A stretch of 64,000 nucleotides of DNA from Escherichia coli (lineage in GTDB: Bacteria > Pseudomonadota > Gammaproteobacteria > Enterobacterales > Enterobacteriaceae): assembly GCF_001677475.2 (NCBI RefSeq), contig NZ_CP015229.1. One strand, written 5' to 3'. The notes under the pieces were generated by a model, which made no database searches, was not told the origin of the DNA, and was given only the letters and a program-made list of their open reading frames with translations. The translations under genes were made by a program, and so were the position numbers. Shown piece after piece: positions 18,275-56,479 of this stretch (the stretch's first letter is position 1; each line of letters opens with the position of its first letter).

Positions 18275-18853
18275 ATGTCAGCCATCGACTGTATAATTAC
18301 CGCTGCCGGATTATCATCAAGAATGGGGCAATGGAAAATGATGTTACCCTGGCAACAGGGAACAATTCTTGATACAAGTATCAAAAATGCGTTGCAGTTT
18401 TGTAGCCGAATTATTTTAGTCACCGGCTATCGTGGTAATGAACTGCACGAACGTTATGCGAACCAGAGCAATATCACTATTATACACAACCCAGATTATG
18501 CGCAGGGTTTACTAACATCAGTAAAGGCCGCAGTACCCGCGGTAAAAACAGAATATTGTTTTCTCACCCACGGTGACATGCCTACCCTCACCATCGATAT
18601 TTTTAGAAAAATCTGGTCGTTACGAAATGATGGCGCAATACTGCCACTCCATAATGGCATTCCCGGCCATCCGATTTTAGTGTCAAAGCCATGCCTGATG
18701 CAGGCAATCCAGCGTCCCAATATCACCAATATGCGTCAAGCACTCCTTATGGGAGAACATTATTCCGTCGAAATAGAAAATGCAGAAATAATTTTAGATA
18801 TTGATACTCCAGACGACTTTATTACAGCGAAAAAAAGGTATACTGAAATTTAG
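18275..18853 (+). CDS. mocA: molybdenum cofactor cytidylyltransferase
   Basis: 192 aa; MobA-like nucleotidyltransferase (N-terminus ITAAGLSSRMG). Confidence 0.88.
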   Translation: MSAIDCIITAAGLSSRMGQWKMMLPWQQGTILDTSIKNALQFCSRIILVTGYRGNELHERYANQSNITIIHNPDYAQGLLTSVKAAVPAVKTEYCFLTHGDMPTLTIDIFRKIWSLRNDGAILPLHNGIPGHPILVSKPCLMQAIQRPNITNMRQALLMGEHYSVEIENAEIILDIDTPDDFITAKKRYTEI

Positions 18854-19087
18854 AAAACGTAGTTAAACGATTGCGTTCAAATATTTAACCCTTCCAGTTC
18901 TCTTTATCATAATGATAAGGAATCACTGATTTTGAGAAAAGAGAAAAAGTGATAAATGGGTTGCCAATAATAATTTCCAGGAGTGATTTTAATTCTCATT
19001 TGGCACCTGTGAGTTCATTCACAAAAAGCCCCTAAGTTTCGAGCCGCCTCACATTTTTTTATATTTCCCGCCAAACCTGGCAAGAGT

Positions 19088-49128: not shown

Positions 49129-52002
49129 TTACTGGTATTCGCTAATCGGTACGCAGGAGCAGAACAGGTTACGGTCGCCGTAAACATCATCCAGACGTTT
49201 CACTGTTGGCCAGTATTTGTCTGCCACGCCTGCCGGGAATACTGCAACGTCACGGCTGTACGGATGCGCCCACTCGGCGACCAGTTCGCTCTGAATGTGC
49301 GGCGCGTTCACCAGCGGGTTATCTTCCAGCGGCCAGACACCAGCTTTCACCTGTTCAATTTCTGCGCGGATAGCCAGCATAGCGTCGATAAAGCGATCCA
49401 GTTCCACTTTGCTTTCAGATTCAGTCGGTTCAACCATCAGCGTACCCGCCACCGGGAACGACATCGTCGGCGCGTGGAAACCGTAGTCGATCAGGCGCTT
49501 GGCAATATCCAGCTCGCTGATGCCGGTTTCTTCTTTCAGCGGGCGAATATCGAGAATACATTCGTGCGCCACGCGACCGTCGCGACCGGTATACAGCACC
49601 GGGAAGGCATCCTGCAGGCGGCTGGCAATATAGTTGGCGTTAAGAATTGCCACCTGGCTTGCTTTTTTCAGCCCTTCTGCGCCCATCATGCGGATGTACA
49701 TCCAGCTGATTGGCAGAATGGATGCGCTACCGAACGGTGCCGCAGAAACCGCGCCCTGACGGGTTAACATGCCTTCGATTTGCACCACGCTATGACCCGG
49801 TACAAACGGTGCCAGATGCGCTTTCACACCGATCGGTCCCATACCCGGACCACCACCGCCGTGCGGAATGCAGAAAGTTTTATGCAGGTTAAGGTGCGAA
49901 ACATCCGCGCCAATAAAGCCCGGCGAAGTGATACCAACCTGAGCGTTCATGTTCGCGCCATCAAGGTAAACCTGACCACCGAACTGATGCACGACTTCAC
50001 ACACCTCACGGATCGTTTCTTCATACACGCCGTGGGTGGAAGGATAGGTCACCATGATACAGGAGAGGTTATCGCCCGCCTGTTCCGCTTTCGCGCGCAG
50101 ATCAGTCAGATCGATGTTGCCGTTTTTATCACACGCCACAACCACCACCTGCATTCCTGCCATATGTGCAGAAGCGGGGTTAGTTCCGTGCGCAGAAGCC
50201 GGGATCAGGCAGATATCGCGATGCCCTTCGTTGCGGCTTTCATGATAATGACGAATCGCCAGCAGGCCCGCATATTCGCCCTGTGCGCCAGAGTTCGGCT
50301 GCATACAAACGGCGTCGTAACCGGTCAGTTTCACCAGCCAGTCAGCCAACTGCGCAATCATCTGCTGATAACCTTCGGCCTGTTCCGGCGGGCAGAACGG
50401 GTGCAGTTCGGCAAATTCCGGCCAGGTGATTGGGATCATCTCGGCGGCGGCGTTCAGTTTCATGGTGCAGGAACCCAGCGGGATCATCGCCTGATTCAGC
50501 GCCAGATCTTTACGCTCCAGCGAGTGCATATAGCGCATCATTTCGGTTTCGCTGTGGTAGCGATTAAACACCGGATGAGTGAGGATTTCGTCGTCGCGCA
50601 GCATCGCAGGCTGAATAGAGCGGCTGTCGTGAGCCACGTCTTTGTCCAGCGTGTCGATCTCCAGCCCGTGGTTATCGCCCAGCAGCACGCTGAAAAGCTG
50701 CATCACGTTTTCACGCGTGGTGGTTTCATCAAGGGTGATCCCAACCGCGTTCAGGATATCGCTACGCAGGTTGATTTCAGCCGCTTCGGCACGCGTCAGT
50801 ACGCCCGCTTTGTCGGCCACTTCCACACACAAGGTGTCGAAATAGTGCGCATGACGCAGTTTCAGACCTTTTTGTTGCAGGCCCGCCGCCAGGATATCGG
50901 TCAGACGGTGGATGCGGTTAGCGATACGTTTCAGGCCCACCGGGCCGTGATAAACGGCATACAGGCTGGCGATGTTTGCCAGCAGTACCTGGGAAGTACA
51001 AATGTTGGAGTTCGCTTTCTCACGGCGAATATGTTGCTCGCGAGTCTGCATCGCCATGCGCAGCGCGGTATTGCCAGCTGCATCTTTCGATACACCGATA
51101 ATACGGCCCGGCATTGAGCGTTTGTATTCATCTTTCGCCGCAAAGAATGCCGCGTGTGGGCCTCCGTAGCCCATCGGCACGCCGAAACGTTGCGCCGAAC
51201 CAAAGACAATATCCGCGCCCTGTTTACCCGGCGCAGTTAACAGCACCAGCGCCATAATATCGGCGGCAACGCTGACCACGATTTTGCGTGATTTCAGTTC
51301 GCTGATAAGCGCAGTATAGTCGTGGATTTCACCGGTAGTGCCGACCTGCTGTAACAGCACGCCGAAGACGTCCTGATGATCGAGCACTTTTTGCGCGTCA
51401 TCGACAATCACTTCAAAACCAAAGGTTTCGGCACGAGTACGGACCACATCCAGCGTTTGCGGATGCACATCGGAAGCCACGAAGAAGCGGTTGGCATTTT
51501 TCAGTTTGCTGACGCGTTTCGCCATCGCCATTGCTTCGGCGGCAGCAGTGGCTTCGTCAAGAAGAGAAGCCGATGCCATATCCAGCCCGGTTAAATCCAG
51601 CGTTACCTGCTGGAAGTTGAGCAGTGCTTCAAGGCGGCCCTGGGAGACTTCAGGTTGATACGGAGTATACGCGGTATACCAGCCCGGATTTTCCAGCATG
51701 TTACGCAGGATAACCGGCGGTAACTGCACGGCGGTGTACCCCATGCCGATGTAAGACGTGAAGCGTTTATTGCGACTGGCAATAGCCTTGAGTTCTGCCA
51801 GTGCGGCGTATTCGGTCGCCGGTGCGCCAACCTGCGGCGGAGTCGCAAGCTGAATATCTTTCGGCACAATCTGGCCGGTCAGCGCGTTTAACGATTGTGC
51901 GCCAACGGCATTCAGCATTTCTTGCTGTTGCGCGGCGTCCGGTCCGATATGGCGTTCAATAAAAGCGCCGCTGTTTTCAAGCTGGCTTAACGTCTGTGTC
52001 AT
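49129..52002 (-). CDS. gcvP: glycine dehydrogenase (decarboxylating), glycine cleavage system P-protein
   Basis: Translation from [22 protein letters not shown]; supplied ORF has a 28-codon extension. Confidence 0.93.
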
Positions 52003-52040: not shown

Positions 52041-52110
52041 TCTCTCCTTGCGAAGAGAGTGAGGGTGAGGCGTAAAAGTTCCTCACCCTGATCCTCTCCC
52101 GCAGAAGAGG
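52041..52110 (-). other. three consecutive hairpins in the gcvH-gcvP intercistronic region
   Basis: CTCTC-n8-GAGAG (52041-52058), AGGGTGAGG-n10-CCTCACCCT (52061-52088) and TCCTCT-n8-AGAGGA (52091-52110). Confidence 0.4.
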
Positions 52111-52120
52111 AATAAAGCCG

Positions 52121-52510
52121 TTACTCGTCTTCTAACAATGCTTCGTATGCGGTCGCATCCAGCAGTGATTCCAGTTCGCTTTCATCGCTGGCTTTGATTT
52201 TGAAAATCCAGCCGCCTGCATACGGTTCGCTGTTCACCAGTTCCGGGGAATCGCTCAGTGCGTCGTTTACCGCCACGATTTCACCGCTTACTGGCGCATA
52301 AATGTCTGACGCCGCTTTTACTGATTCGGCAACCGCGCAGTCATCGCCCGCGCTAACCGTTGCGCCCACTTCCGGCAGGTCAACAAACACCATATCGCCT
52401 AACAGCTCCTGGGCATGTTCGGTGATACCAACGGTGTAAGTGCCGTCGGCTTCTTTACGCAGCCATTCGTGTTCTTTGCTGTATTTCAGTTCTGCTGGTA
52501 CGTTGCTCAT
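52121..52510 (-). CDS. gcvH: glycine cleavage system H-protein (lipoyl carrier)
   Basis: Translation [16 protein letters not shown]; lipoyl-lysine context; start taken at the second ATG of the supplied ORF. Confidence 0.92.
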
Positions 52511-52533
52511 CAATCAATCTCCAAAAAAGTAAA

Positions 52534-53628
52534 TCACGCGACGGCTTTACCGTTACGCACAAAAACAGGTTTCGTCACTTTAACCGGCATTTCACGGTTG
52601 CGAATTTGCACAATCGCTGTTTCACCAATACCTTCCGGCACGCGCGCCAGCGCAATGCTGTAACCCAGCGTCGGGGAGAAAGTACCGCTGGTGATAATGC
52701 CTTCATGCTGGTTGCCCTGCGCATCGGTAAAGCGTACCGGCAGTTCATTACGCAGCACGCCTTTTTCGGTCATCACCAGACCAACCAGTTTTTCTGTGCC
52801 ATGCTCACGCTGCACTTCCAGGGCTTCACGACCGATAAAGTCACGATCTGCCGGTTCCCAGGCGATAGTCCAGCCCATGTTGGCGGCTAACGGAGAAATG
52901 GTTTCGTCCATCTCCTGACCATAAAGATTCATACCCGCTTCCAGACGCAGCGTGTCACGCGCGCCCAGGCCGCATGGCTTAACGCCCGCTTCCACCAGCG
53001 CACGCCAGAAATCGGCCGCTTTTTCATTGGGCAGCGCAATTTCATAGCCCGCTTCACCGGTATAACCAGTGGTGGCAATAAACAGATCGCCCGCCTGCAC
53101 GCCAAAGAACGGTTTCATCCCTTCCACCGCCTGACGCTGGGCGTCATTAAACAGTGTGGCAGCTTTTGCCTGCGCATTCGGCCCTTGTACGGCAATCATG
53201 GAAAGGTCATCACGAACGGTAATTTCGATGCCGAAAGGTTCAGCGTGTTGGGTGATCCAGGAGAGGTCTTTTTCGCGGGTGGCGGAGTTAACAACGAGGC
53301 GGAAGAAATCTTCAGTAAAATAGTAGACGATGAGATCATCTATCACACCGCCAGAGGCATTCAACATCCCCGAGTAAAGGGCTTTGCCGCTTTTGGTGAG
53401 TTTCGCCACATCGTTCGCCAGCAGATAACGCAGAAACTCCCGGGTGCGGCTGCCGCGGAGATCGACGATGGTCATATGTGACACATCAAACATTCCGGCA
53501 TCGGTACGTACCGCATGATGTTCGTCGATTTGCGAACCGTAATGCAGCGGCATCATCCAGCCGTGGAAATCCACCATGCGAGCGCCGCAAAGCGTGTGTT
53601 GTTCGTACAAAGGAGTCTGTTGTGCCAT
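52534..53628 (-). CDS. gcvT: aminomethyltransferase, glycine cleavage system T-protein
   Basis: 364 aa, [33 protein letters not shown]. Confidence 0.93.
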
Positions 53629-54010
53629 CTTGTCCTCATTGAATAAGCGGGGCTGACAACTTTTTCATGGCGAAATTATCACCACGAAACCCAGCATCGG
53701 GGCCACTCCCGGTCCCCAACGCAATCGTTCTCTTTTGTCTGAACTTACCACCGAAACAGACTGTTAACCATAAGGTAAAATTGATCATCACATTAGCTTA
53801 TGGTTAAAAAACGCCAAAATCGCAACAGAATAAAAAACCAAAAAACACACCAGTTTCTATACAAAGATGATGCTATTAGAAAGTTAATTTGAATAAGGCA
53901 ATATTAAGAACTGAAAAAATGTCAAAAAATACTAAATCAAAAAATCATGGCATTAGAAAATATAATGCGAAAACGGAGGTGAAATTAGTTTATTTCAAAT
54001 GAGGAAAATC

Positions 54011-54040
54011 TCCCGGCGAAAAAACCGGGAGATGAAAGTG
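54011..54040 (-). terminator. rho-independent terminator downstream of ubiI: TCTCCCGG-ttttttcg-CCGGGAGA then TTTT (minus strand)
   Basis: Hairpin plus T-tract on the minus strand, about 40 nt after the ubiI stop. Confidence 0.6.
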
Positions 54041-54075
54041 TGATGGGTATCAAATAAACAACAGAGGAAAAATTT

Positions 54076-55278
54076 TTAACGCAGCCATTCAGGCAAATCG
54101 TTTAATCCCATTGCCTGGCGGATAAGTTGCGGCTTAACGCCAGGAAGCGTGTCGGCCAGTTTCAAACCAATATCACGCAGCAGTTTTTTCGCCGGATTGG
54201 TACCGGAAAACAGATCGCGGAATCCCTGCATACCAGCCAGCATCAGCGCCGCACTGTGCTTGCGGCTACGCTCATAGCGACGCAGATAAATGTACTGCCC
54301 GATGTCTTTCCCCTGACGATGCAACCGTTTCAGTTCAGCAATCAGCTCTGCAGCATCCATAAAGCCGAGATTTACCCCCTGCCCCGCCAGCGGGTGAATG
54401 GTATGCGCGGCGTCGCCCACCAGCGCCAGACGATGCGCGGCAAACTGGCGCGCATAACGCCCCGTCAGTGGGAACACCTGACGCGCGCTCTCAACCTTGC
54501 ATAAGCCAAGGCGATTATCAAAAGCGATATTTAACGCGCGATTAAATTCGTCTTCACTTGCCTGCTGCATCCGCTGCGCTTCCTCTGGCGACAGTGACCA
54601 GACAATCGAGCAAAGATGCGGATCGCTAAGCGGTAAAAAGGCCAGAATGCCTTCGCCATGGAAAACCTGCCGCGCCACCGCATCATGCGGTTCTTCCGTG
54701 CGAATGGTCGCTACCAGCGCGTGATGCTGATAATCCCAGAAAGTCAGCGGAATATCGGCTTTGTTGCGCAACCAGGAATTAGCGCCGTCCGCGCCAATCA
54801 CCAGGCGCGCCGTTAACATGCTGCCATCTTTCAGCGTCAGGAAGGTTTCGTTTTCTCCCCAGGCGACCTGCTGTAATTCTGCGGGGGCCAACAGAGTGAT
54901 ATCTGACGACTGATGCGCTTTGTTCCACAGCGCGTAGTGAATCACTGAGTTTTCAACGATATGCCCAAGATGGCTATAGCCCATGCTTTGATCGTCAAAC
55001 GAAATGTGACCAAAACTGTCTTTGTCCCACACTTCCATGCCGTGATAGCAGCTGGCCCTACGAGCGAGAATGTCCTGCCAGACGCCAAGACGGGTGAGTA
55101 ATTTTTCGCTGGCGGCATTGATAGCCGAAACGCGCAGTTGTGGTGGTGCATCCGCCGCCAGAGGTTCCGGTACGCGCTGCTCCAGTACGGCAACGCGTAA
55201 GCCGCTACCCTGTAAGCCGCAGGCAACCGCCAGCCCCACCATGCCGCCGCCAACAATGGCTACATCAACACTTTGCAT
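54076..55278 (-). CDS. ubiI: FAD-dependent 2-octaprenylphenol hydroxylase
   Basis: 400 aa; N-terminal FAD fold VAIVGGGMVGLAVA. Confidence 0.9.
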   Translation of the reverse strand: MQSVDVAIVGGGMVGLAVACGLQGSGLRVAVLEQRVPEPLAADAPPQLRVSAINAASEKLLTRLGVWQDILARRASCYHGMEVWDKDSFGHISFDDQSMGYSHLGHIVENSVIHYALWNKAHQSSDITLLAPAELQQVAWGENETFLTLKDGSMLTARLVIGADGANSWLRNKADIPLTFWDYQHHALVATIRTEEPHDAVARQVFHGEGILAFLPLSDPHLCSIVWSLSPEEAQRMQQASEDEFNRALNIAFDNRLGLCKVESARQVFPLTGRYARQFAAHRLALVGDAAHTIHPLAGQGVNLGFMDAAELIAELKRLHRQGKDIGQYIYLRRYERSRKHSAALMLAGMQGFRDLFSGTNPAKKLLRDIGLKLADTLPGVKPQLIRQAMGLNDLPEWLR

Positions 55279-55300: not shown

Positions 55301-56479
55301 TCAACGCGCCACCCAACCGAGGGTGCGCTGCGCCAGCACATCGCGTGCCGGGGTGAATAATTCCATCGTCATCAGCCCGATGTTGCGCCCGACAACCAGC
55401 GGCGTCCAACGGTTGGCAAAAAGATGTACAAGGCTGTCCGTGACGCCAATGGTTGCTTCGCGATCGCTCTGTCGACGCTGCTGATAACGACACAATACGC
55501 CGTAATCACCCATGTCTTCTCCGCGCTCCTGCGCCTGAGTCAGGGTTTCCGCAAGACTCATGACATCTCGCATACCGAGGTTGAATCCTTGCCCGGCAAT
55601 TGGGTGCAGAGTTTGCGCCGCATTGCCCACCAGCACGGTACGATGGGTAATAGGTCTGGCGGCGCGGGTTAACGCCAGCGGATAAGCACTGCGTTTACCT
55701 GCGTGGGTAATTTTCCCAAGTCGCCAACCAAAGGCCGACTGGAGTTCACGGCAAAACTTCTCATCACTCCACGACAGCACCTCTTCGCGCCGTTCCAGTG
55801 GATGACACCAGACCAGCGAACAGCGTCCGTCAGACATCGGCAACATCGCCAGCGGGCCATGTTGTGTAAAGCGTTCAAAAGCGCGCCCTTCATGCGCAAC
55901 GGAAGTCGCAACGTTGGCAATCACAGCCAGTTGTTCGTAAGGCTCCTGCTGCCAGTCAACGCCGCACGCGGTGGCTAACGCTGAATGGGTGCCATCAGCG
56001 GCTACCAGCACGCGGCCCGTCAGCGTCTCGCCACTCTCCAGCGTCACTTCAACGTGACTCTGAGTACGGGCAACGTTAGCCACGCGATCCGGGCAATGCA
56101 GCGTTACGCCAGGTGCTTTTCGCAGCAATGCAAACAGCCGTTGCCCGACATTATGCAATTCGACAACCTGCCCCAGCGCCGCCAGTTGGTAATCTTCTGC
56201 GGCGAGGGTGACGAATCCGGCATGACCACGATCGCTGACATGCACGGTAGTGATGGCGGTTGCGCAATCAGCCAAAGATTGCCAGACGCCGATGCGCGCC
56301 AGTTGCTGACAGGTACCCGCCGCCAGCGCAATAGCTCGTCCATCAAAGCCCGGATGAGCATGTGACTCTGGTGCGGTCGCCTCAATTAAATGAACCGGCA
56401 GCGCCCCGTGACTTAACCGGGAAATAGCCAGCGCCAGCGTCGCGCCCGCCATGCCGCCACCGACGATGATTACGCTCAT
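55301..56479 (-). CDS. ubiH: FAD-dependent 2-octaprenyl-6-methoxyphenol hydroxylase
   Basis: 392 aa; N-terminus MSVIIVGGGMAGATLA. Confidence 0.9.
   Translation of the reverse strand: MSVIIVGGGMAGATLALAISRLSHGALPVHLIEATAPESHAHPGFDGRAIALAAGTCQQLARIGVWQSLADCATAITTVHVSDRGHAGFVTLAAEDYQLAALGQVVELHNVGQRLFALLRKAPGVTLHCPDRVANVARTQSHVEVTLESGETLTGRVLVAADGTHSALATACGVDWQQEPYEQLAVIANVATSVAHEGRAFERFTQHGPLAMLPMSDGRCSLVWCHPLERREEVLSWSDEKFCRELQSAFGWRLGKITHAGKRSAYPLALTRAARPITHRTVLVGNAAQTLHPIAGQGFNLGMRDVMSLAETLTQAQERGEDMGDYGVLCRYQQRRQSDREATIGVTDSLVHLFANRWTPLVVGRNIGLMTMELFTPARDVLAQRTLGWVAR

Follow-up and report, generated by a model that had tools for sequence, protein, structure and literature searches.

The 447 bp between ubiI and gcvT in the Escherichia coli DNA analysed here (a stretch of 64 kb, hereafter the window) are, with high confidence, the transcription-control region of the glycine cleavage operon gcvTHP, attached to the ygfB-pepP-ubiH-ubiI unit at the 3' end of the latter and governed by the regulator mechanism proposed below. 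The identity of this region is already known. In E. coli K-12, the ubiI-gcvT region is documented as the promoter region of gcvTHP and is controlled by GcvA/GcvR, Lrp, PurR and CRP (PMC13104608, PMC5002191, PMC1905917, PMC3658693). Since the present finding recognises a textbook regulatory region, it adds little that is new. Its value is that of a worked example, in which protein-binding blocks appear as sharp phylogenetic footprints around a drifting spacer of fixed length. The initial annotation had proposed that the gap is a multi-regulator control region of the glycine cleavage operon, and this was borne out by orthology with K-12, by the positions of the motifs, by a published transcription start and by conservation across genera. 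Read 5' to 3' on the gcvT strand, a CRP-like site precedes a G+C-rich hairpin of 10 bp, a pair of CTAAT (GcvA-type) blocks and an AT-rich spacer of 140 nt; after these come another CTAAT block, a sigma-70 promoter that is weak, the PurR-type box at the start and a leader of 108 nt. These features and the flanking genes are as follows.

54076-55278, minus strand: ubiI ORF (NCBIfam NF005949, 838.8 bits, cut-off 620)
54076-54078, minus strand: TAA stop codon of ubiI, which bounds the gap on its upstream side
54039-54054, no strand assigned: CRP-like site TTTGATACCCATCACA, one mismatch to TGTGA-N6-TCACA
54009-54034, minus strand: G+C-rich hairpin AUCUCCCGGU-UUUUUC-GCCGGGAGAU, stem 54034-54025 / 54018-54009, 10 bp, 6-nt loop
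53998-54008, minus strand: weak U-rich tail UUUCCUCAUUU, directly 3' of the hairpin
53956-54005, no strand assigned: conserved block, putative equivalent of GcvA sites 3 and 2, containing two CTAAT motifs (53988-53984, 53956-53952) and one ATTA-N7-TAAT (53966-53952)
53919-54002, plus strand: yqfI, 27 codons, antisense to gcvT, MSKNTKSKNHGIRKYNAKTEVKLVYFK
53806-53945, no strand assigned: AT-rich spacer (-70 to -209), 25.0% G+C, T-rich on the gcvT strand, expected region of Lrp binding and bending
53786-53805, no strand assigned: conserved block ATAAGCTAATGTGATG, putative equivalent of GcvA site 1, with CTAAT at 53796-53792
53742-53770, minus strand: weak sigma-70 promoter read from the sequence, -35 TGGTTA (53770-53765), 17-bp spacer, -10 TAAGTT (53747-53742)
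53736, minus strand: gcvTHP transcription start, transferred from K-12 coordinate 3,050,775
53719-53734, no strand assigned: PurR-type box AAGAGAACGATTGCGT, four mismatches to the palindromic consensus
53629-53736, minus strand: gcvT 5' leader, 108 nt, its start taken from the K-12 transfer, fold z = -2.69
53694-53722, minus strand: leader hairpin H1 (+15 to +43), 11 pairs, covarying across Enterobacteriaceae
53683-53693, minus strand: conserved single-stranded motif YGGGUUUCGUG, 3' of H1
53663-53689, minus strand: leader hairpin H2 (UUUCGUGGUG / CGCCAUGAAA), less well supported
53637-53633, minus strand: Shine-Dalgarno sequence GAGGA, followed by the gcvT ATG at 53628-53626
52534-53628, minus strand: gcvT ORF (TIGR00528, 566.6 bits, cut-off 235.85)

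The ends of the ubiI and gcvT ORFs set the gap at 53629-54075 and confirm the length of 447 bp given earlier. All genes lie on the minus strand, including ubiI and gcvT, whose strand had not been stated before. The UbiI protein is 99% identical in amino acids to that of K-12, and alignment with the K-12 ubiI-gcvT intergenic region gave 100% coverage and 96.2% identity over the same 447 bp between the same flanking genes. Of 5426 complete E. coli genomes, 5425 possess the region, with identities of 90-98%. Cross-genus conservation was assessed in 76 Enterobacterales loci, hairpin folds and CRP spacing in 58 distinct sequences, and within-genus variation in seven Escherichia sequences. The arrangement GAGGA-N4-ATG before gcvT is conserved across the Enterobacterales loci. 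In 75 of 80 loci ubiI and gcvT are separated by 344-555 bp, and the synteny of the two genes is ancestral. The control region closely resembles that of K-12 studied by the Stauffer laboratory, with CTAAT blocks, PurR box, CRP site, promoter hexamers and hairpin at matching positions, and differs from it by 17 substitutions which lie mostly in the AT-rich spacer, none of them in the conserved blocks. One of these is found at -2 (A for G at 53738).

The transcription start of gcvTHP was mapped in K-12 by SMRT-Cappable-seq at 3,050,775 (PMC6131387 supplementary file 4). We placed it in the window by means of the yqfI coordinates (PMC6001520) and an ungapped alignment, by which the K-12 coordinate equals the window position plus 2,997,039. 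The published start then falls on 53736 and fits the conserved -10 and -35 hexamers, so that the comparison with the mapped gcvT promoter proposed in the initial annotation came out in its favour. TAAGTT lies at -11 to -6 and TGGTTA at -34 to -29, and both are conserved in the 76 loci. A simple sigma-70 consensus scan of 53400-54300 (9 of 12 positions required) found no match because the hexamers agree with the consensus at 6 of 12 positions. Each of them carries three of the six consensus bases, which fits an activator-dependent promoter.

The phylogenetic footprints in the 76 Enterobacterales loci coincide exactly with the regulator blocks. Our motif search of the gap, another check suggested earlier, returned four CTAAT motifs, one ATTA-N7-TAAT and one PurR-like box along with the CRP-like site, while matches to the Lrp consensus were weak and non-specific (3-4 mismatches). 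The latter are not distinctive since they are to be expected in any AT-rich DNA. The consensus of GcvA is T-N11-A containing CTAAT (PMC3658693, PMC5002191), and its footprints span 57 bp upstream and 35 bp (PMC5002191). All 76 loci have the CTAAT at 53988, 66 have that at 53796 and 31 that at 53956. The block 53786-53805 is invariant among the seven Escherichia sequences. Relative to the start at 53736, the blocks are located at -269 to -220, -69 to -50 and +3 to +18, and the CRP-like site is centred at about -310. Papers of the Stauffer laboratory reportedly place the gcvT sites at -271 to -214, -69 to -34, -3 to +17 and -313, the last of which is said to be the centre of the CRP site in the work of Wonderling and Stauffer from 1999.

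The CRP-like site lies upstream of the hairpin. In the 64-kb window, five CRP-type matches with at most one mismatch were found versus 2.3 expected, and at this window-wide rate about 0.016 would be expected in 447 bp. The TCACA half of the site is conserved and located 48-49 nt from the CTCATTTG block in the 58 distinct sequences. CRP control of gcv is reported in PMC1905917, which cites Wonderling and Stauffer (1999). The PurR-type box, for its part, sits at the transcription start, outside the AT-rich block, and reads AAGAGAACGTTTGCGT in 41 of 76 orthologous loci. As a motif it is weak and alone would not stand out in 64 kb; a scan with the PurR core motif (at most two mismatches) missed it and detected no enrichment in the window. 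PurR control of gcvTHP has been reported (PMC1905917). On the strength of K-12 homology, GcvA, Lrp, PurR and CRP would occupy the named blocks in this strain as well, and expression would respond to glycine, purines and glucose.

From published K-12 work carried over by homology, we infer that a looping mechanism operates in this strain. The LysR-type regulator GcvA would bind both of the distal CTAAT blocks (about -269 to -220) as well as the promoter-proximal one (about -69 to -50), and Lrp would coat and bend the 140-nt AT-rich spacer between them. When glycine is lacking, GcvA together with GcvR would keep the DNA in a repression loop. Glycine would release GcvR and allow GcvA to activate the weak sigma-70 promoter (TGGTTA-17-TAAGTT; start 53736). 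PurR would repress from its box at the start, and CRP would act from the far-upstream site. In each of the 76 loci, site 3 (the first CTAAT block) and the PurR box delimit a span of 289-291 bp, whose flanks range in length from 44 to over 100 nt. Drift of the spacer sequence within a span of fixed length is what a DNA-looping mechanism predicts. The arrangement resembles other LysR-type promoters with distal and proximal sites and bending (gcvA-gcvB, metR-metE, ilvY-ilvC; PMC5002191) in its T-N11-A/CTAAT-type sites, in the proximal site beside the -35 hexamer and in the weak, activator-dependent promoter. However, LysR-type proteins usually occupy adjacent sites within about 50 bp, whereas here distal and proximal sites are about 160 bp apart and bridged by the spacer expected to be coated by Lrp, and the regulator gene is not divergently encoded.

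At the upstream end of the gap, the initial annotation had placed a terminator of the ubi operon at 54011-54040. A hairpin is indeed present a few bases off (54009-54034) and its role in termination is plausible, but the U-tail is weak and one Term-seq study lists no 3' end there. The hairpin has an energy of -17.6 kcal/mol by itself, and in its 86-nt context the fold has z = -3.05, a stability that none of 200 shuffles attained. In 57 of 58 distinct sequences, the spacer after ubiI holds a hairpin of some 10 bp (z < -2, mononucleotide shuffles), the stem sequences of which differ. RNAalifold recovered only four pairs, the two classes of stem being out of register with each other, and it was replaced by folding of each sequence. 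The hairpin resembles Rho-independent terminators in its 10-bp G+C-rich stem, its 6-nt loop, its location after a stop codon and the U residues that follow, but it has a short U-tract, four U and then CCUCAUUU, which is even poorer in other genera. We consider it a likely terminator or 3'-end stabiliser. From its position downstream of the CRP site and upstream of the first GcvA block, it would end or stabilise the ubiI transcript and shield the control region from read-through.

Alternatively, the hairpin may not work as an intrinsic terminator. The ubiI transcript would then be ended by Rho or by processing, with the hairpin acting as a barrier to 3'-exonucleases or as an insulator of the gcv control region; it might also block antisense yqfI transcription. 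We hold this to be possible but doubtful. In a simple terminator scan of 53400-54300 (five U in eight required) the hairpin failed because its tail, UUUCCUCAUUU, is too poor in U, and other genera have 2-4 U among the eight bases after the stem. The curated Term-seq list (PMC7815308) contains no 3' end at the hairpin, near K-12 3,051,04x, and the same study gives a Rho-dependent region inside ubiI at K-12 3,051,551. The two strands form the stem with equal stability, the sense version being the more stable one in only 26 of 58 sequences. These findings are balanced by the E. coli stem itself, which is G+C-rich over 10 bp, has four U on its 3' side, of which one is paired, and lies 45-70 nt from the stop codon, and by full-length SMRT-Cappable-seq reads which put the end of operon b2909-b2906 (ygfB-pepP-ubiH-ubiI) after ubiI (PMC6131387). 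Expression of ubiI may also be too low for a curated Term-seq peak. Termination or stabilisation of the ubiI transcript at the hairpin is the reading that we prefer.

Between the GcvA-type blocks lies the most conspicuous part of the gap by composition. The very AT-rich segment described earlier at about 53800-54000 is real, with 26.5% G+C at 53800-53999 against a window mean of 50.9%. G+C as low as the 25.0% of the spacer occurs in 0.06% of 140-nt windows, and the minimum of the whole 64 kb (22.9%) is at 53827. The plus strand contains 50% A and 23% T. The segment had been described as a leader/regulatory region; the regulatory part of this description stands, but the block is not leader because it lies upstream of the promoter. 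The claim of many short A-tracts did not survive comparison with dinucleotide shuffles: nine runs of at least four A were counted, the shuffles gave 8.2 ± 1.5 and 42% of them reached nine. Runs of at least four T were absent from the plus strand at 53800-54000, and the 10-11.5 bp periodicity of A-tracts in this interval was not significant, 28% of the shuffles matching the observed power. With both count and phasing within the dinucleotide shuffles, A-tracts were rejected as a signal beyond composition, and it is composition, not tract count, that distinguishes the segment. DNA curvature, also named in the initial annotation as worth predicting, was calculated with a wedge model. The highest predicted bend of the whole 64 kb lies inside the spacer, at 53921; another peak, at 53837-53858, also exceeds the 99th percentile. 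A role of Lrp in DNA bending has been described (PMC13104608).

The upstream part of this segment overlaps yqfI, an ORF not mentioned before. K-12 RefSeq carries an annotated 'protein YqfI' at the homologous place, and tagged YqfI protein has been detected (PMC6001520); the ORF here is intact over its 27 codons and its product shares 26 of 27 residues with the K-12 sequence in that study (N10H). It could be argued from this that the AT-rich segment mainly encodes and expresses YqfI and that its features reflect the gene and its promoter and not regulator binding. We consider this very improbable. The ORF covers 27 nt of the 140-nt spacer and is intact in Escherichia only: in Citrobacter codon 7 is a stop, and elsewhere either the ATG is missing or stops are present, yet the DNA under the C-terminal half stays conserved in genera without an intact ORF. 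Even within E. coli one genome has an internal stop (pseudogene). The 13 variable sites among the seven Escherichia sequences are split 3/7/3 by codon position and hence show no third-position excess, so that conservation as a protein-coding gene was not found. A search of NCBIfam matched YqfI to no family. The ORF is better seen as a young small-protein ORF arisen inside transcription-factor binding sites.

It is hardly credible that the AT-rich segment is an unconstrained or horizontally acquired spacer, perhaps silenced by H-NS, which has no specific architectural role: its sequence is weakly conserved across genera (identity 0.3-0.6 per 10-nt bin), polymorphism within E. coli is concentrated in it (in Escherichia, 8-11 sites vary per 20 nt, against none in the blocks) and its A-tracts are at the level expected from composition, but all 76 loci, which come from many genera, keep it at 140 or 141 nt while neighbouring non-regulatory stretches vary freely, T exceeds A on the gcvT strand in 75 of 76 loci, and the ancestral ubiI-gcvT synteny noted above likewise speaks against it. 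In terms of the conservation test proposed in the initial annotation, length and T bias of the segment are kept and its sequence is poorly conserved. A spacer of constrained length between GcvA blocks, expected to be bent by Lrp, is the reading retained.

Downstream of the start, the gcvT leader is richer in G+C than the AT-rich block. The earlier statement that it holds no glycine-riboswitch-like structure proved correct. No Rfam match with E <= 1 was obtained on either strand of 53300-54400, and hence the gap contains no glycine riboswitch or other known RNA family. The glycine riboswitch (RF00504, 'gcvT element') is likewise located upstream of gcvT and confers glycine-responsive control, but in Enterobacteriaceae the GcvR/GcvA proteins sense glycine (PMC13104608). 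Two leader uORFs (53668-53636 and MLGFVVIISP) were rejected as leader peptides because of their poor conservation: L003 and L004 carry frameshifts in them, one strain has ATA in place of ATG, and most genera lack them altogether.

The leader does contain a hairpin, H1, that had escaped the initial annotation and whose 5' arm begins inside the PurR box. Paired cells amounted to 90.2% compared with 82.1% in shuffles and 29-60% in slid controls, double-change cells numbered 52 against 18 ± 5.8, and the covariation score was 0.428 against 0.264, a value reached by none of 500 shuffles. H2, a helix specified by hand, was marginal, with 76.7% of cells paired (shuffles, 72.0%) and a covariation of 0.257 (shuffles, 0.206) that 6 of 500 shuffles reached, and RNAalifold gave no consensus for it. 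Term-seq detected an RNA 3' end at K-12 3,050,723(-), in LB at OD 2.0 only (PMC7815308 supplementary files 1 and 3), which maps to 53684, 10 nt after the H1 stem. This 3' end beside H1 is published but undiscussed. Rfam has no entry for the H1 element, and our literature search found no paper describing such a leader element.

The leader is reminiscent of hairpin-dependent pause or attenuator leaders and of 5'-UTR RNAs seen by Term-seq (PMC7815308), in that H1 is followed by a short U-containing stretch and the 3' end would give an RNA of about 53 nt. It differs from such leaders in having no leader peptide, no evident antiterminator and no proper U-tract; in the gcvT leader no alternative pairing (antiterminator) indicative of regulated read-through was identified. 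The conserved hairpin and the mapped 3' end together suggest that gcvTHP may also be controlled after initiation. As a tentative proposal, to which we give well under an even chance, the gcvT leader of Enterobacteriaceae might carry an undescribed cis-acting RNA element (H1 plus YGGGUUUCGUG) that mediates hairpin-dependent pausing, premature termination or formation of a stable 5'-UTR RNA of about 53 nt. If true, regulation after initiation would come on top of control by DNA-binding proteins, the only kind so far assumed for this promoter. Relative to K-12, one of the substitutions in the present strain strengthens H1 (GGCCCC for GGCUCC).

The minus strand carries every gene around the gap between the ubiI stop and the gcvT start, and the 447 bp assigned to this gap in the initial annotation proved correct (53629-54075).

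ends at 49129, minus strand: gcvP
52121-52513, minus strand: gcvH
52534-53628, minus strand: gcvT (NCBIfam TIGR00528, 566.6 bits, above the curated cut-off)
54076-55278, minus strand: ubiI (NCBIfam NF005949, 838.8 bits, above the curated cut-off)
55301-56479, minus strand: ubiH
minus strand, neighbour of ubiH: pepP

Of 5426 complete E. coli genomes, 5425 have a match that covers 80% or more of the gap at 90-98.2% identity. Its K-12 homologue is the same 447 bp, likewise flanked by ubiI and gcvT, and contains as sole annotated feature an 84-nt CDS, 'protein YqfI', encoded antisense to gcvT. Because of this homology to the K-12 ubiI-gcvT region the gap is, judged by sequence, the gcvTHP control region, a feature already known. 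There, GcvA acts with its partner GcvR and with Lrp to loop the DNA for repression, and glycine breaks this loop (PMC13104608). Upstream of gcvTHP lie GcvA footprints 57 and 35 bp in length, which contain 5'-CTAAT-3' (PMC5002191), the GcvA consensus being T-N11-A with CTAAT inside (PMC3658693), and gcvTHP is also under PurR and CRP control (PMC1905917).

K-12 coordinates equal window positions plus 2,997,039, as derived from the K-12 position of yqfI (3,050,958-3,051,041; PMC6001520) and the ungapped alignment. The gcvT-gcvH-gcvP start determined by SMRT-Cappable-seq at K-12 3,050,775 (PMC6131387 supplementary file 4) is thus converted to 53736. Relative positions were counted from 53736 on the gcvT strand.

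54076-54078 (-340 to -342): ubiI stop
54054-54039 (-318 to -303, centre about -310): CRP-like site TTTGATACCCATCACA
54034-54009 (-298 to -273): hairpin after ubiI
53988 and 53956 (-252 and -220; block -269 to -220): distal CTAAT pair, GcvA sites 3 and 2
53945-53806 (-209 to -70): AT-rich spacer
53796 (-60; block -69 to -50): proximal CTAAT, GcvA site 1
53770-53765 (-34 to -29): -35 element TGGTTA
53747-53742 (-11 to -6): -10 element TAAGTT
53734-53719 (+3 to +18): PurR-type box AAGAGAACGATTGCGT
53637-53633 (+100 to +104): Shine-Dalgarno GAGGA
53628 (+109): gcvT ATG

The Stauffer papers reportedly give -313 for the CRP centre, -271 to -214 for GcvA sites 3 and 2, -229 to -92 for Lrp, -69 to -34 for GcvA site 1 and -3 to +17 for PurR, values that differ by no more than a few bases from those found here.

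Motif scans recovered the CTAAT (GcvA-type) blocks and a CRP-like site with one mismatch, about 0.016 such matches being expected per 447 bp, while the PurR and Lrp matches in the gap were weak. Since the CRP-like site is the only motif notable by motif evidence alone, the argument rests on position and conservation. Elsewhere in the window, a perfect CRP consensus TGTGAGTTCATTCACA occurs at 19008-19023 (plus strand) within another low-G+C block (18717-19042), and further one-mismatch sites are present at 9392, 17340 and 17815.

A GcvT scan with one genome per species yielded 80 loci (Escherichia, Citrobacter, Enterobacter, Klebsiella, Raoultella, Kosakonia, Buttiauxella, Cedecea, Pantoea, Erwinia, Serratia, Hafnia and others), and 75 of these have ubiI upstream of gcvT at a distance of 344-555 bp. 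Alignment of 76 gaps revealed sharp footprints at 54005-53956, 53805-53786, 53775-53766, 53755-53741 and 53735-53717. All 76 loci have CTAAT at 53988, 66 have it at 53796 and 31 at 53956; a fourth copy, at 53879, is probably due to chance because only 3/76 loci have it. The -10 element reads TAAGTT in 57/76 loci and the PurR box AAGAGAACGTTTGCGT in 41/76. Measured from the first GcvA block through to the end of the PurR box, the span is 289-291 bp throughout (76/76), whereas the ubiI-proximal flank and the distal leader differ in length by tens of bases. Together, K-12 homology, block positions relative to the start site and cross-genus conservation support the multi-regulator control of gcv that had been invoked initially. 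In many genera (54039-54078; loci L010-L068) only a few bases separate the end of ubiI from the conserved TCACA half-site, e.g. CGTTAACTGCGTCACAC, and the ubiI stop codon overlaps the left half of the CRP-like site.

The segment described as very AT-rich is indeed so: 53806-53945 has 25.0% G+C compared with a window mean of 50.9%, a value as low occurs in only 0.06% of 140-nt windows, and the 64-kb minimum falls inside it. The plus strand of 53800-54000 has 50% A and 23% T. The A-tracts noted initially do not exceed expectation, as nine were counted in 53800-54000 versus 8.2 ± 1.5 in dinucleotide-preserving shuffles and no significant 10-11.5 bp periodicity was detected there; the tracts are therefore a consequence of composition. 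Curvature prediction with a wedge model placed the strongest bend of the whole window at 53921 and a second peak, above the 99th percentile, at 53837-53858. Across genera, conservation of the segment is split: length (140 or 141 nt in 76/76 loci) and an excess of T over A on the gcvT strand (75/76) are kept, whereas sequence identity is only 0.3-0.6 per 10-nt bin. Spacer G+C is 21-27% in Escherichia versus a median of 37% over the 76 loci; the extreme AT-richness is partly Escherichia-specific. A spacer of fixed length and free sequence is what would be expected for looping and bending, and it reportedly matches work by the Stauffer laboratory on spacing and orientation. Among seven Escherichia sequences, substitutions concentrate in 53955-53836, with at most 11 per 20 nt, and spare the blocks. 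Within E. coli, 53811-53955 is a polymorphism hot spot with substitutions mostly in the spacer and no indels; in 1350 complete genomes the gap is only 90-95% identical, the best match to the window reaching 98.2%.

The hairpin after ubiI, initially called the ubi operon terminator, has the stem AUCUCCCGGU / GCCGGGAGAU (54034-54025 / 54018-54009). Folded alone it reaches -17.6 kcal/mol, and its z in context is -3.05. In 58 distinct sequences, 48-49 nt separate the TCACA half of the CRP site from CTCATTTG, the start of the GcvA block, and in 57 of these a hairpin of about 10 bp forms in between (median -16.3 kcal/mol, z < -2). Stems vary, e.g. UCUCCCGG, CCCUUCCCG and UUUUCCCGGC; structure is kept, not sequence. 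While the hairpin is thus real and conserved, its tail UUUCCUCAUUU fails a simple terminator scan; tails are pyrimidine-rich, yet in most genera only 2-4 of 8 positions are U. Stability of the stem does not differ between the strands, and no 3' end close to it is recorded in the curated Term-seq lists for three growth conditions (PMC7815308). Instead, a region of bicyclomycin-sensitive (Rho) termination is listed at K-12 3,051,551 (PMC7815308 supplementary file 2), which corresponds to about 54512 (minus strand), inside the ubiI coding sequence. These points weaken the terminator reading. In its favour, the operon ygfB-pepP-ubiH-ubiI, as delimited by full-length reads (PMC6131387), has its end after ubiI. 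The hairpin is likely a terminator or 3'-end stabiliser insulating the gcv control region; an intrinsic-terminator mechanism is plausible.

The initial annotation had missed a small antisense ORF.

53919-54002, plus strand: yqfI, 27 codons, encoding MSKNTKSKNHGIRKYNAKTEVKLVYFK

It differs in one residue from K-12 YqfI, which has been detected as an epitope-tagged protein (PMC6001520). Antisense to gcvT, yqfI covers GcvA sites 3 and 2 and the spacer edge and stops 6 nt short of the ubiI hairpin. Among the sequences compared the ORF is intact only in Escherichia: in homologous DNA of Citrobacter codon 7 is a stop, in other genera the ATG is missing or stops occur, and in one E. coli genome an internal stop makes yqfI a pseudogene. 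The DNA under the C-terminal half is conserved even where the ORF is broken; this conservation is therefore that of the GcvA sites. Variable sites are distributed 3/7/3 by codon position, without third-position excess, and no family model matches YqfI. By these sequence features yqfI looks like a young ORF arisen inside regulatory DNA.

The 108-nt gcvT leader (53629-53736) is not AT-rich. An Rfam search of both strands of 53300-54400 at E <= 1 gave no match, hence no glycine riboswitch is present, as originally noted. The following elements were located in the leader.

53722-53694, minus strand: hairpin H1 (+15 to +43), directly after the PurR box
53683-53693, minus strand: conserved motif YGGGUUUCGUG, 3' of H1
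53689-53663, minus strand: hairpin H2, UUUCGUGGUG/CGCCAUGAAA
53636-53668, minus strand: uORF of 10 codons, its stop overlapping the gcvT Shine-Dalgarno

H1, overlooked initially, is the only lead here with some novelty; it has no match in Rfam and no description was found in a literature search. In 56 distinct leaders, 90.2% of the cells of its 11-pair helix were paired; shuffles gave 82.1 ± 0.8% and slid controls 29-60%. Double-change cells numbered 52 versus 18 ± 5.8, and the covariation score was 0.428 versus 0.264, a level reached by 0/500 shuffles. Many cells are filled by G-U pairs, which points to a sense RNA rather than a DNA palindrome. A Term-seq 3' end at K-12 3,050,723, seen in LB at OD 2.0 only and undiscussed there (PMC7815308 supplement), maps to 53684, 10 nt past H1 and 56 nt upstream of the gcvT ATG; possible causes are pausing stabilised by the hairpin, weak premature termination, or an exonuclease halted by a stable stem. 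Covariation support for H2 is marginal; Escherichia, Citrobacter and Enterobacter-like genera have this hairpin, and elsewhere other small hairpins take its place. The uORF is not conserved, with a frameshift in two Escherichia lineages, ATA in one strain and absence from other genera.

Within the operon, a further hairpin occupies the gcvH-gcvP gap.

52063-52088, minus strand: hairpin GGGUGAGG-N10-CCUCACCC

A strong Term-seq 3' end at K-12 3,049,097, about window 52058, lies near it (PMC7815308), and a shorter variant of the transcript, gcvT-gcvH, appears in the SMRT-Cappable-seq list (PMC6131387). Hairpin, 3' end and short variant suggest partial termination or processing within the operon. 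Another Term-seq 3' end lies 65 nt into gcvT (K-12 3,050,602, about window 53563; PMC7815308).
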